A DNA stretch of 6,393 bases from a virus (Duplodnaviria > Heunggongvirae > Uroviricota > Caudoviricetes), in the IMG/VR virus record IMGVR_UViG_2576861133_000006; one strand, 5' to 3'. This document shows positions 269 to 5,195 of the stretch, in pieces (within the stretch, counting starts at the first letter, position 1; each line of letters begins with the position of its first letter). A program made the translations under genes and the position numbers. Under the pieces are notes generated by a model. It was given only the letters and a program-made list of their open reading frames with translations, ran no database searches and was not told where the DNA came from.

Positions 269-373
269 GGATATTTATCAGGATTTATCGGTTTCTGAGC
301 CCTGGATATGTTTATCAGTTCCAGCCTGTTGCCTCAGGCTGCTAACAGGTCAATACAATCATGAGGATTATTT
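269..373. promoter_or_regulatory. Divergent intergenic region between endolysin and antisense ORF, with direct repeats and nested palindrome
   Basis: Direct repeats GGATAT(G)TTTATCAG at 269-281 and 304-318, with a third ATTTATCG copy at 283-290. Nested inverted repeats CAGCCTG(322-328)/CAGGCTG(335-341) and CCTGTT(325-330)/AACAGG(344-349). A GAGGA Shine-Dalgarno at 363-367 sits 6 nt before the ATG at 374. No confident -35/-10 could be placed. Confidence 0.3.
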
Positions 374-646
374 ATGGACAATAACACCATTTCTCTACAG
401 GAGTTGCTCGACAGCATTTCCAGGCTTCGGGAAGACGTGAATACCCTTACCGTCGCCTTCTCATATCTGGCATTCTCAATTCCAAGGGAACAGATGCAAT
501 CAACGCTGGCATCAATCCAGTTTGAATCATGCAATCCCAAATGGTCTCAGGAACAACAAGACTCTTTCAGGCGGCTTGCTGTATTACTGGATGAAAAATA
601 TGCTGGTAAAATTACCATTTCGGCGGACTCTTCAGAGAACCCGTAA
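374..646 (+). CDS. Hypothetical protein, 90 aa, antisense to the lysis cassette
   Basis: ORF with ATG start and strong SD (GAGGA, 6-nt spacer). Product MDNNTISLQELLDSISRLREDVNTLTVAFSYLAFSIPREQ... has no recognisable motif. The 3' end overlaps the convergent DUF1327 gene by 35 bp (612-646). Chosen over the minus-strand 68-aa ORF 334..540, which starts with TTG and lacks an SD. Confidence 0.4.
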   Translation: MDNNTISLQELLDSISRLREDVNTLTVAFSYLAFSIPREQMQSTLASIQFESCNPKWSQEQQDSFRRLAVLLDEKYAGKITISADSSENP

Positions 647-1208
647 TTATTCCCGGTAGTTTTCCTCTGTAGGTTATCAACACATCCTGCGCCTCTAAAA
701 TTACGGGGCGCTTTTCCGGCGACTGCTCATCCCCTTCACATAACCCGGCAGCAACATCCAGGAAGACCTGTCTGATGCTCCTTCTGGCTGCTGCCTCATA
801 AAACTCCAGCGCGGCACCTTCAACACGGTCCAGCGAGATGTCCAGGTCAAAAATTTCACCGTCAAAGCGTTTTTTGTCCCGTAACGCTAAAGTTACCGTA
901 ACTTTATTCTCAAAATTGCGGATCCCTTTCACAATCAACTGCGCCTCTAAAATTACGGGGCGCTTTTCCGGCGACTGCTCATCCCCTTCACATAACCCGG
1001 CAGCAACATCCAGGAAGACCTGTCTGATGCTCCTTCTGGCTGCTGCCTCATAAAACTCCAGCGCGGCACCTTCAACACGGTCCAGCGAGATGTCCAGGTC
1101 AAAAATTTCACCGTCAAAGCGTTTTTTGTCCCGTAACGCTAAAGTTACCGTAACTTTATTCTCAAAATTGCGGATCCCTTTCACAATCAGTTCATAGTTT
1201 TGAGTCAT
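612..1208 (-). CDS. DUF1327/YdfR-like lysis-cassette protein carrying an in-frame tandem duplication (198 aa; about 114 aa without the duplication)
   Basis: ATG at 1208..1206 preceded by GGAGA SD, 4 nt after the pinholin stop. The N-terminus MTQNYELIVKGIRNFENKVTVT... resembles, from memory, E. coli Qin prophage YdfR (DUF1327), which likewise lies between holin and lysozyme. Residues 7-90 are repeated as 91-174. Confidence 0.65.
   Translation of the reverse strand: MTQNYELIVKGIRNFENKVTVTLALRDKKRFDGEIFDLDISLDRVEGAALEFYEAAARRSIRQVFLDVAAGLCEGDEQSPEKRPVILEAQLIVKGIRNFENKVTVTLALRDKKRFDGEIFDLDISLDRVEGAALEFYEAAARRSIRQVFLDVAAGLCEGDEQSPEKRPVILEAQDVLITYRGKLPGIITGSLKSPPKW
687..1190. repeat. Near-perfect tandem direct duplication, 2 x 252 bp (687-938 and 939-1190), in frame within the DUF1327 gene
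   Basis: Direct comparison of the two copies: 251 of 252 positions identical. The only difference is 938 (a) versus 1190 (g), a synonymous TTG/CTG Leu change. 252 is a multiple of 3, so the frame is preserved. Confidence 0.95.
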
Positions 1209-1460: not shown

Positions 1461-1493
1461 AATAAAAAAAGCCACCAGTTAAGTACTGATGGC
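1461..1493 (-). terminator. Rho-independent terminator between the esterase gene and the pinholin gene
   Basis: Minus-strand RNA: 8-bp stem GCCAUCAG/CUGGUGGC (one G.U pair), 7-nt loop UACUUAA, then UUUUUUUAUU. Plus-strand coordinates: stem 1471-1478 and 1486-1493, A-tract 1461-1470. Confidence 0.55.
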
Positions 1494-1578
1494 TCTGATA
1501 ACTCATGCAGGCATCTCAGACGACCCACTGACACTACCGGTGAGTTTAACGATACCTTCCATTTGACTGGCTCACTTT

Positions 1579-4049: not shown

Positions 4050-4087
4050 ACAAAATCAATATAAACAGCCCCTCCGGAGAGGGGCTG
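4050..4087 (-). terminator. GC-rich hairpin followed by a U-rich tract on the minus strand (putative intrinsic terminator)
   Basis: 9-bp perfect stem CAGCCCCTC(4066-4074)/GAGGGGCTG(4079-4087) with loop CGGA. The minus-strand transcript continues UUUAUAUUGAUUUUGU; on the plus strand the hairpin is followed by GAGAGUGGCG, with no U-tract. It lies 35 nt past the stop of the 111-aa ORF. Confidence 0.4.
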
Positions 4088-4478
4088 GAGAGTGGCGCTA
4101 TGTGCCATTGCATGGTGCCGGGTGCCTCCCGGTGAATTCAGTACCAGCACCTGAATCCGCGATTATCCCATATACCTACTCGCTGATTGCCCCTCCGCAC
4201 AGGGGGATTCACCATGCCAGTTTCTTTTAACAAACTCCCCGCAAACCAGACAACAATCAACCGCCTGAATTGTGAAGTATTTAAAAATTTCTCCCGCTAA
4301 CTGATACCCGGCTAACAGTCTGGCGTTTTCTTTTTCAGCAACGGGAAAGCAACAACCACCACACCCGCCACCAGCACACCGTCAGCCAGCACTGACATTA
4401 TCCGGCTGCAGCAATGCCATTCACAAAAACAGTAAGCAATCACTTTTTACCGTAACCGGTGATAATCCAGATATGTAT

Positions 4479-4942: not shown

Positions 4943-5019
4943 TGGCGCGCTGTACTGGATTCGAACCAGTGACCGATTGCTTAGAAGGCAATTGCTCTGT
5001 CCGGCTGAGCTAACAACGC
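4943..5019 (-). tRNA. tRNA-Arg, anticodon UCU, 77 nt (phage argO/argU-like)
   Basis: Minus-strand sequence GCGTTGTTAGCTCAGCCGGACAGAGCAATTGCCTTCTAAGCAATCGGTCACTGGTTCGAATCCAGTACAGCGCGCCA. Acceptor stem GCGTTGT/ACAGCGC (one G.U), D stem GCTC/GAGC, anticodon stem ATTGC/GCAAT with loop CTTCTAA, T arm ACTGG-TTCGAAT-CCAGT, encoded CCA. Confidence 0.9.
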
Positions 5020-5119: not shown

Positions 5120-5195
5120 TGGTGGCCCTTGCTGGATTTGAACCAGCGACCTGGCGATTATGAGTCGCTCGCTCTCACCACTGAGCTAAAGGGCC
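5120..5195 (-). tRNA. tRNA with CAU anticodon, 76 nt; most likely tRNA-Ile2 (lysidine type, ileX/ileZ-like) rather than tRNA-Met
   Basis: Minus-strand sequence GGCCCTTTAGCTCAGTGGTGAGAGCGAGCGACTCATAATCGCCAGGTCGCTGGTTCAAATCCAGCAAGGGCCACCA. Perfect acceptor stem GGCCCTT/AAGGGCC, anticodon loop CTCATAA, T arm GCTGG-TTCAAAT-CCAGC, encoded CCA. Very close to E. coli ileX as I recall it. Confidence 0.9.

Follow-up and report, generated by a model that had tools for sequence, protein, structure and literature searches.

Direct repeats and a hairpin between the divergent endolysin and cargo genes of an Escherichia coli prophage: probable expression signals at an insertion site in the lysis cassette

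The 105-bp interval that separates the endolysin gene R from a divergently oriented small gene in an E. coli prophage contains short direct repeats and a palindrome. These are best understood as ordinary signals for expressing the genes on either side and not as a dedicated protein-binding array. To the more specific reading, in which the interval serves both directions as a compact control region, at a hot spot for morons within the lysis cassette, we give an even chance. On the minus-strand late transcript, positions 269-318 would form a conserved A/U-rich 5' leader of R that contains no Shine-Dalgarno sequence. Read rightward, the same A/T-rich DNA probably provides a weak promoter, TTTATC-17-TATGTT, with a start near position 319. 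The hairpin would then lie at or near the 5' end of the mRNA of the moron, where it most likely stabilizes or insulates the RNA, and positions 351-373 would give the 90-aa cargo ORF its Shine-Dalgarno sequence and spacer. The promoter with its start, the strand on which the hairpin acts and its stabilizing role are what we infer in this scheme; its anatomy, the insertion of the ORF, the pattern of conservation, the missing Shine-Dalgarno sequence of R, the retention of the hairpin and the lack of further motif copies are what the sequences show.

Results

Locus and prophage context

The window, i.e. the whole stretch of 6,393 nucleotides that was analysed, represents the late region of an E. 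coli prophage of the lambdoid, Stx-phage-like type. Its first 1600 positions match Escherichia phage vB_EcoS-783R2 with 99.9% identity, and several E. coli chromosomes show 100% identity over positions 200-700. The main genes of the window are on the minus strand, including a DNA methyltransferase-like ORF, two tRNAs, a match to the STnc100 sRNA and a SASA-family esterase. The genes around the interval are the following:

1428-1213, minus strand: class II holin
612-1208, minus strand: YdfR-family (DUF1327) gene, Pfam PF07041 in two stretches
374-646, plus strand: 90-aa ORF of the PHROG family phrog_2411 (E = 1e-58 over the full length), WP_000369850.1
1-268, minus strand: 5' part of the SAR-type endolysin (lysozyme) gene R, PF00959, truncated at the window edge

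The YdfR-family product has a length of 198 aa due to an internal, perfect tandem duplication of 252 bp (TRF: 687-1189, period 252, 100% identity). The R protein has 177 aa in relatives, and in identical genomes PGAP annotates a 'lysozyme' with the same start, the codon at 268-266 on the minus strand (CAT at 266-268 on the plus strand). A preliminary description of this DNA, made from the sequence without database searches, had located the repeats and the palindrome between the endolysin start and the start of an antisense ORF. This location was correct: the divergent starts of R at 268 and of the 90-aa ORF at 374 enclose the 105 nt from 269 to 373. Comparison with relatives divides the interval into three parts, 269-318 with the repeats, 319-350 with the palindrome, and 351-373.

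A UGA codon overlapping the AUG of R persists in the window only as a relic. We rejected a small minus-strand ORF ending at this UGA, the frame of which is open for 22 codons only and has no start codon.

An insertion site for cargo genes upstream of R

Among prophages that share the holin, ydfR and R genes of the window, the DNA upstream of R occurs in several forms. The form of the window, type 1, carries the 90-aa ORF as cargo and was found in 1040 of 5426 complete E. coli genomes. Type 3 (L003; e.g. the Stx phage of strain 86-24) lacks the ORF; its ydfR-R spacer measures 50 nt and matches window positions 269-312. Type 2 (L100) likewise has no ORF; its spacer of 63 nt shares 269-297 with the window and continues with GTTTATCTGTTCC, the equivalent of 310-322. 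The leaders of types 2 and 3 directly adjoin ydfR, and in the Qin prophage of strain K-12 the ydfR stop overlaps the R start. In type 7 the same leader is followed by a different hairpin, CGCCAGTG-GTGGG-CACTGGCG, and then by at least five downstream sequences, which part from one another precisely at the 3' base of this hairpin and contain other plus-strand ORFs of about 87-93 aa (phrog_2572, phrog_18136) or larger ORFs. Homology between the cargo proteins of different types was undetectable by BLASTP. In the alignment with L003, the L100 sequence and the leader catalogue, the DNA absent from no-cargo relatives covers approximately 313-617; its left junction is at 312/313 against type 3 or at about 322/323 against type 2, and its right junction is at about 618, within the last codons of ydfR.

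Presence and absence at a fixed point, with cargo and no-cargo forms sharing both flanks, is the pattern by which morons are recognized. Judged by this comparison of sequences, the 90-aa ORF is a moron-type insert and the site upstream of R is a cargo hot spot. A homologue of the 90-aa ORF with 60% identity is present in Citrobacter beside a different lysis gene, not R, and still has CAGGATT...CCCTGGATAT and the CGTCAGTG...CACTGGCG hairpin upstream. The cargo found at the slot includes proteins of about 90 aa from no fewer than three PHROG families (2411, 2572 and 18136) as well as larger ORFs, and each cargo gene convergently overlaps the 3' end of a YdfR-family gene. One could go further and imagine the leader plus hairpin as a fixed expression and recombination platform, a dedicated slot in which unrelated small genes are swapped upstream of the endolysin gene. 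In such a platform the hairpin would be a cassette boundary, loosely like an attC site of an integron, and the cargo might tune lysis or host defence. We consider this very improbable.

The direct repeats and the leader of R

The GGATAT-type direct repeats of the preliminary description are all present, and two of them lie within the initiation region of R:

269-281: repeat copy A, GGATATTTATCAG
281-291: partial repeat copy C, GGATTTATCGG
304-318: repeat copy B, GGATATGTTTATCAG
269-292, minus strand: translation-initiation region of R, CCGAUAAAUCCUGAUAAAUAUCC-AUG, A/U-rich, with copies A and C and no Shine-Dalgarno sequence

In dinucleotide-preserving shuffles of the 105 nt, the ungapped repeat of 11 nt with at most one mismatch had p = 0.024 and the best gapped self-alignment, which joins A and B, had p = 0.018. 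The 7-bp hairpin described below had p = 0.04 in the same kind of shuffles. Repeats and hairpin are each real yet marginally above chance (p about 0.02-0.05), that is, modestly unusual.

For R, no purine-rich complement to the anti-Shine-Dalgarno sequence was found 5-10 nt before the AUG. The best duplex had a dG of +0.3 kcal/mol, compared with -6.1 kcal/mol for the small ORF and -8.5 kcal/mol for ydfR. The R initiation region is also the least structured nearby, with an unpaired probability of 0.52 versus 0.34-0.42. Being A/U-rich, the leader of R may depend on ribosomal protein S1.

Conservation was assessed by comparing the window with eight lineages that had been selected because their ORF proteins are divergent (71-88% identity). 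In this set the repeat region 269-318 diverged by 9%, a value to which one 6-nt deletion contributes; substitutions in 269-292 amount to about 3%. R diverged by 27% at third codon positions and by 6.4% at positions 1 and 2. The preliminary description had left conservation of the repeats in homologous regions to be checked, and at 3-9% against 27% at synonymous sites they are indeed conserved. Among 69 distinct R-upstream sequences, the 13 nt adjoining the R start were invariant (entropy 0) and the next 11 nt had an entropy of 0.20, compared with 0.625 at third and 0.17 at first and second positions of R; this apparent invariance is inflated, because the set was anchored on an exact 20-mer about 10 nt from the leader. 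The protein-anchored set of eight lineages agrees with it in direction. The R leader is conserved in prophages without a divergent ORF as well. In L004-type prophages it differs after GGATAT, and thus the initiation site tolerates other A/U-rich sequences. In L090 a 6-nt deletion merges copies A and C, and UGAUAAAU before the AUG is kept.

The best-supported reading of copies A and C is that they are the A/U-rich ribosome-loading leader of R, the 24 nt before its AUG; we propose that they are conserved because they form the ribosome-loading site. Copy B, read on the minus strand, is CUGAUAAACAUAUCCAGG and thereby nearly duplicates the R initiation region CUGAUAAA-UAUCCAUG. It appears to be a diverged duplicate of the R initiation sequence, CUGAUAAACAUAUCC-AGG, in which AGG replaces AUG on the minus strand. 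In the comparison of leader types, complete copy B was found in the type 1 cargo form only. Its left half, up to 312, is common to the no-cargo type 3 and the cargo type 7 leaders, and its right half (GTTTATC.GTTCC) is common to the no-cargo type 2. The full copy B, GGATATGTTTATC, reads as a join of CCCTGGATATGTT from types 3/7 and GTTTATCTGTTCC from type 2.

Such a join raises the question whether the repeats and the palindrome are non-functional by-products of the recombination that shuffles cargo, for example a duplicated R start region or chimeric junctions, with their conservation reflecting recent common ancestry. The marginal statistics and the composite appearance of copy B fit this explanation. 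However, common ancestry would have to account for a leader that diverges by 3-9% where adjacent synonymous sites diverge by 27% in the same lineages, and we regard the by-product explanation as a whole as somewhat unlikely; the palindrome, which bears on it as well, is taken up below.

It is also conceivable that the direct repeats bind a regulatory protein that controls R, the small ORF or both, such as a response-regulator-type factor on GATAAA units spaced about 10 bp apart or a phage-encoded regulator. Two conserved blocks (269-289 and 304-316) are indeed set apart by about 15 variable nt, a period of 10 nt is seen in GATAAATCCTGATAAAT on the minus strand, and the repeats are modestly above chance. 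However, the most conserved block adjoins the start codon of R, where translation initiation explains its conservation, full copy B is specific to one cargo type, L090 has lost 6 nt, which fuses copies A and C, and inspection by eye matched no known motif. For the consensus sequences of LexA, PhoP, CpxR, Fur, DnaA and IHF, no convincing match was seen in this way. The search for further copies of the repeat motif that the preliminary description had suggested for defining a regulon returned a single locus only, both in the 6.4-kb window and in the complete 46.5-kb type 1 phage Chlobot; thus, there is no regulon in either. A regulatory protein on the direct repeats is in our view quite unlikely. 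As a protein-binding element the repeats did not hold up, since A and C are the invariant 24 nt at the endolysin AUG and are equally kept in prophages that have no divergent ORF.

Two further candidates for the interval were discarded. The sigma-E-like sequence GGAACTG-17-TCAGA on the minus strand has GGGAC or GGGGC in place of GGAAC in most relatives, and the GG/GC spacing of a sigma-54 promoter, inspected by eye, was not present.

The hairpin between leader and cargo gene

The palindrome has the following parts:

316-349: GC-rich stem-loop with inner stem 322-328/335-341, loop 329-334 and residual outer stem 318-320/344-346
322-328/335-341: inverted repeat CAGCCTG/CAGGCTG, 7 bp, perfect, with a 6-nt loop
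325-330/344-349: inverted repeat CCTGTT/AACAGG

Folded in isolation, 316-349 of the window has -12.9 kcal/mol with z = -2.25, and the minus strand folds almost equally well with -13.2 kcal/mol. Folding of the whole 105-nt interval is unremarkable, with z = -0.29 for the plus and +0.62 for the minus strand. A pairing of the two start-codon regions proposed by RNAalifold was rejected as an artefact, as it consists of invariant and G.U-rich pairs with a positive covariation term. In an Rfam E-value scan of the whole window no match fell within 269-373.

The palindrome had been described as nested. Both inverted repeats exist as described; the nesting is better read from the relatives, in which there is one bulged, interrupted hairpin of 12-13 bp, CTGTTCCAGCCTG-N6-CAGGCTGcGAACAG. 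This hairpin reaches -18.9 kcal/mol with z = -6.15 in L093. In the lineage of the window, changes at A317 and T343 weaken the outer stem and two outer pairs are lost.

In the eight lineages, 319-350 diverged by 22%, close to the synonymous rate of 27%. A stable hairpin was nevertheless present in all nine lineages when each sequence was folded separately (z from -1.7 to -5.5). Energies of -14 to -18 kcal/mol are retained by the most divergent alleles, compared with about -7 kcal/mol predicted by random substitution from the best hairpin. The four variants that diverge most have 10-12 substitutions in 38 nt and yet exceed the random-substitution expectation in stability with P = 0.003-0.02, in a simulation that started from the most stable allele and in which these four allele-II variants share ancestry and count as one or two independent events. 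Due to this shared ancestry the simulation is moderate and not strong evidence that the stability of the hairpin is maintained beyond neutral expectation. Column-wise covariation was absent among the aligned relatives, with 0 pairs changed on both sides and a score no better than that of shuffles, because the changes disrupt pairs or move them out of register. In allele II (TCCCGGCCTG...CAGGCGGGG), for instance, T59C and C81G give new C-G pairs one step out of register. A scan of metagenomes added few further variants of the hairpin.

Arms that change and shift register between lineages fit a nucleic-acid structure and not a sequence-specific protein site, and they argue against an operator of this kind at the palindrome. 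At the equivalent position, the type 7 cargo modules and the Citrobacter homologue have a hairpin of different sequence, the CGCCAGTG-GTGGG-CACTGGCG hairpin, the stem base of which varies between C-G, U.G and U-A. We conclude with moderate confidence that the palindrome of the window is a weakened copy of the 12-13-bp hairpin and that it has been selected as structure rather than sequence. For the explanation by recombination, the two outer pairs lost from the window, a divergence in the palindrome zone near the synonymous rate and the missing covariation of columns are all expected observations. It accounts less well for a stability that is kept despite the 10-12 substitutions, and for the fact that other cargo modules and Citrobacter have a hairpin of unrelated sequence in the same place.

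A separate question is on which strand the hairpin acts. The plus strand forms the more stable hairpin in seven of the nine lineages, and by our count about 6 wobble changes in the stem fit the plus strand only and 3 the minus strand only. The latter three (G to A in L089 and L008; A in L141 and L101) would suit an element that acts in processing or stability of the late transcript, i.e. on the minus strand, at a distance of about 50 nt before the AUG of R; it might shield a processed R-Rz mRNA at its 5' end or the upstream S-ydfR segment at its 3' end. A function in the late transcript would likewise agree with the position of the hairpin, which borders the conserved R leader in every cargo type, and with the nearly equal folding of the minus strand. 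However, prophages of the no-cargo type 3 have R without the hairpin, and in Citrobacter the hairpin module travels with the cargo beside a different lysis gene. Taken together with the higher stability of the plus strand in most lineages, this makes an action on the late transcript unlikely. The hairpin is not an intrinsic terminator either: the stem is GC-rich, but neither strand has a U-tract, and the terminator scan did not report it.

The small gene and its expression signals

The 90-aa ORF, which PGAP labels 'hypothetical protein', is convergent with ydfR and overlaps it tail-to-tail by 35 nt. Across the eight lineages its third codon positions diverged by 27% and its first and second positions by 8.8%. 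The match to phrog_2411, the strong Shine-Dalgarno sequence and this purifying selection identify it as a real gene under purifying selection. Its product is predicted to form three helices (AF2 pLDDT 72), and neither Pfam, NCBIfam, PADLOC and PDB sequences nor Foldseek against PDB and BFVD gave a match. The family is narrow, occurring in Escherichia, Shigella and Citrobacter, and outside it the protein has no significant relatives in sequence or fold. Literature searches on ybl58, on ydfR together with lysis genes and on DUF1327 found nothing, papers on the EcOnc prophage sRNAs do not mention the locus, and transcription-start or expression data for it were not found in the literature searches.

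Expression of the gene requires a transcript of the plus strand. Candidate expression signals on this strand are:

284-312, plus strand: candidate weak sigma-70 promoter P1, TTTATC (284-289), 17-nt spacer, TATGTT (307-312)
329-359, plus strand: candidate promoter P2, TTGCCT (329-334, in the hairpin loop), 19-nt spacer, TACAAT (354-359)
363-367, plus strand: Shine-Dalgarno sequence GAGGA of the 90-aa ORF, 6 nt before the ATG, anti-Shine-Dalgarno duplex of -6.1 kcal/mol
689-717, plus strand: terminator-like hairpin GCGCCUC-N9-GGGGCGC followed by UUUUCC, inside the ydfR coding sequence

The segment 351-373 diverged by 16% in the eight lineages, and the AGG of the Shine-Dalgarno sequence and its spacing to the ATG are invariant in alignment A2. 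In the same alignment both hexamers of P1, which has a predicted start near 319 and a score of 8.8 bits with the position weight matrix (PWM), are nearly invariant. P2 has the highest plus-strand score in the window, 9.2 bits. Both scores correspond to the 75th-90th percentile of the background, taken as the best score per 150 nt across the window, and a consensus promoter scan of 1-1600 reported no promoter near the element, neither P1 nor P2. Hexamers resembling a -10 box are found just upstream of the hairpin in L006, L101 and L094 too. The candidate of L006, from Citrobacter, is TTGCCG-17-TATTGT with 9.6 bits, and the hexamer of L094 sits in an unrelated left context. Ranked by score, the candidate directly before the hairpin is first or second on the plus strand in the window, in L101 and in L006. 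In favour of P1, the CAGGATT...CCCTGGATAT block accompanies the cargo in Citrobacter, although the gene to its left is not R there.

If P2 were the real promoter of the small ORF, the palindrome would overlap it, with TTGCCT in the loop, and could serve as an operator or as a modulating DNA structure. Apart from the score of P2, this would explain why A2, A5 and T6 of its -10 hexamer are invariant and T1/T2 of its -35 hexamer invariant or nearly so in alignment A2, and L006 offers an analogue, GGGACA-17-TATTAT, with the -35 hexamer in the hairpin loop. However, a spacer of 19 nt is at the edge of what sigma-70 tolerates, the score is within the background, a start near 366 would leave a leader of about 8 nt, and arms that vary in sequence and register between lineages would be intolerable for a sequence-specific protein. 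A promoter within the palindrome is therefore, in our judgement, an unlikely explanation. We favour P1 as the probable promoter of the small ORF because the gap between hairpin and ATG is only 24 nt, because the predicted start of P2 (about 366) falls inside the Shine-Dalgarno sequence and because type 7, Citrobacter and L094 also have a -10-like hexamer just before the hairpin.

At the other end of the gene, the terminator-like hairpin at 689-717 lies 43 nt past the stop of the small ORF and folds with -12.3 kcal/mol (z = -1.3), in a ydfR coding sequence that is conserved for other reasons. It was missed by the simple scan because its loop is longer than 8 nt. Possibly it marks the 3' end of the moron transcript.

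Discussion

The preliminary description had suggested that the repeats and the palindrome are a protein-binding or RNA-structure element. Constraint was found on both classes of element, and the hairpin is kept in spite of 22% sequence change; the suggestion is thus supported in part, though not as regards a dedicated protein-binding array of repeats. The interval is not a new regulator. The practical gain is one of annotation, namely of a common prophage endolysin leader and of the 5' region of a widespread small cargo gene that is present in about one in five complete E. coli genomes. Two points may be of interest to phage biologists: an endolysin family that is translated without a Shine-Dalgarno sequence from a leader invariant across many prophages, and a recurrent insertion point for small antisense genes, each behind a maintained hairpin. 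Neither overturns current understanding.

The hairpin shares with intrinsic terminators a GC-rich stem of 7-13 bp and a 6-nt loop. In contrast to them, no U-tract follows the stem, which continues with GUAAAUACAAU or GUCAAUACAAU on the plus strand and with AUAAACAUAUCC on the minus strand. A possible parallel is the hairpin in the 5' UTR of ompA, an example of a 5'-terminal stem-loop that stabilizes mRNA. Like stabilizers of this type, the hairpin is GC-rich, is situated a few nucleotides past the predicted start and before the Shine-Dalgarno sequence, and keeps its structure while its sequence drifts. Unlike in ompA, the start is here a predicted one, and the hairpin could equally act on the opposite transcript.

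Morons of lambdoid phages are extra genes such as bor and lom of lambda and the morons of HK97 and HK022. Classical morons have a recognizable promoter upstream and an intrinsic terminator downstream. Such genes were reportedly described by Juhala and by Hendrix and their co-workers in 2000. The 90-aa ORF resembles morons in being a small gene that is present or absent at one point between two conserved late genes, in its orientation against the late operon, in having its own ribosome-binding site and in being under purifying selection. It differs from the classical cases in that its promoter is a weak candidate and the hairpin upstream of it has no U-tract, and in that it overlaps the 3' end of ydfR tail-to-tail.

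A close known arrangement is ydfR-rrrQ of the Qin prophage in E. coli K-12, which has the same order of holin, YdfR, lysozyme and spanin and likewise has AUAAAUAUC(C/U)AUG at the lysozyme start without a Shine-Dalgarno sequence. In Qin, the stop of ydfR overlaps the start of the lysozyme gene (AUGA), which allows translational coupling, whereas in the window ydfR stops 343 nt upstream. Therefore, R must initiate independently here, from its A/U-rich leader.

Cargo hot spot upstream of the endolysin

The site upstream of the endolysin is a hot spot for cargo. The loci of relatives assigned to it are L101, L124, L126, L134, L141, L161, L170, L171 and L211, all just upstream of the lysozyme start, together with L006 from Citrobacter and L094. 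They share a conserved leader and the hairpin CGCCAGTG-GTGGG-CACTGGCG, which are followed by differing genes, and the sequences of these diverge precisely from the hairpin's 3' base onward. The cargo consists mostly of plus-strand ORFs of approximately 87-93 amino acids that belong to the unrelated PHROG families 2411, 2572 and 18136. Where the downstream gene is visible, namely in the window, L126, L161, L171 and the Citrobacter locus, the cargo ORF is convergent with a YdfR-family gene and overlaps its 3' end by ~14-70 nt.

Several variants of the small ORF locus were also found. In two loci from Logan assemblies (L090, SRR11015012; L091, SRR11015026), the phrog_2411 ORF lies between holin and lysozyme, the ydfR gene was not called, and the repeat copies A and C of the endolysin leader are fused through a 6-nt deletion. 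In L041, located at the end of an IMG/VR contig, homology with the window does not start until AACAGGTCAATACAAT, 30 nt ahead of the ORF and corresponding to window position 343/344, and the sequence to its left is unrelated to the window. This break could reflect recombination at another junction, an inserted sequence or an artefact of the contig end. The allele P0061 of locus L092 (E. coli GCA_900448885.1), named 'ybl58' in one source, is preceded by nucleotides identical to those of the window, while an internal frameshifted stretch lowers the identity of its protein to just 44%.

Duplication within ydfR and terminator-like hairpins

The YdfR/DUF1327 ORF of the window (612-1208, minus strand) encodes 198 amino acids compared with the usual 114, because it contains a perfect tandem duplication of 252 bp (687-1189; 2.0 copies, 100% identity). 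The contiguous duplication junction was absent from the closest phage and from the top E. coli genome matches. The duplication either arose very recently or is an artefact of assembly. Terminator-like hairpins lie at:

689-717, plus strand: hairpin GCGCCUC-N9-GGGGCGC and then UUUUCC, on the strand opposite to the ydfR coding sequence
1468-1496, minus strand: terminator-like hairpin of 12 pairs followed by UUUUUAUUGUU

The first hairpin lies 43 nt past the stop codon of the small ORF and may mark the end of the moron transcript; it is present twice due to the 252-bp duplication. The second is situated within the late operon, after the esterase gene and before the holin gene, whose start (1428) follows ~40 nt downstream.

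Rfam matches and the endolysin start

Rfam families gave these matches:

4057-4246, minus strand: STnc100 sRNA family, strong match (132 bits vs gathering score 47)
4946-5019, minus strand: tRNA gene in the late region (Rfam tRNA, 68 bits)
5123-5195, minus strand: tRNA gene in the late region (Rfam tRNA, 72.5 bits)

The STnc100 match lies between the tRNA genes, which are upstream of it, and the esterase gene, which is downstream. tRNA genes in the late region are typical of Stx-type phages, and the window likewise carries two.

No Shine-Dalgarno sequence precedes the endolysin. A minus-strand frame (269-334) that lacks a start codon runs uninterrupted for 22 codons and closes with a UGA overlapping the endolysin AUG (AUGA, 265-268). 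This frame looks like a relic of the arrangement in the E. coli K-12 prophage Qin, where the stop codon of ydfR overlaps the start codon of the lysozyme gene.
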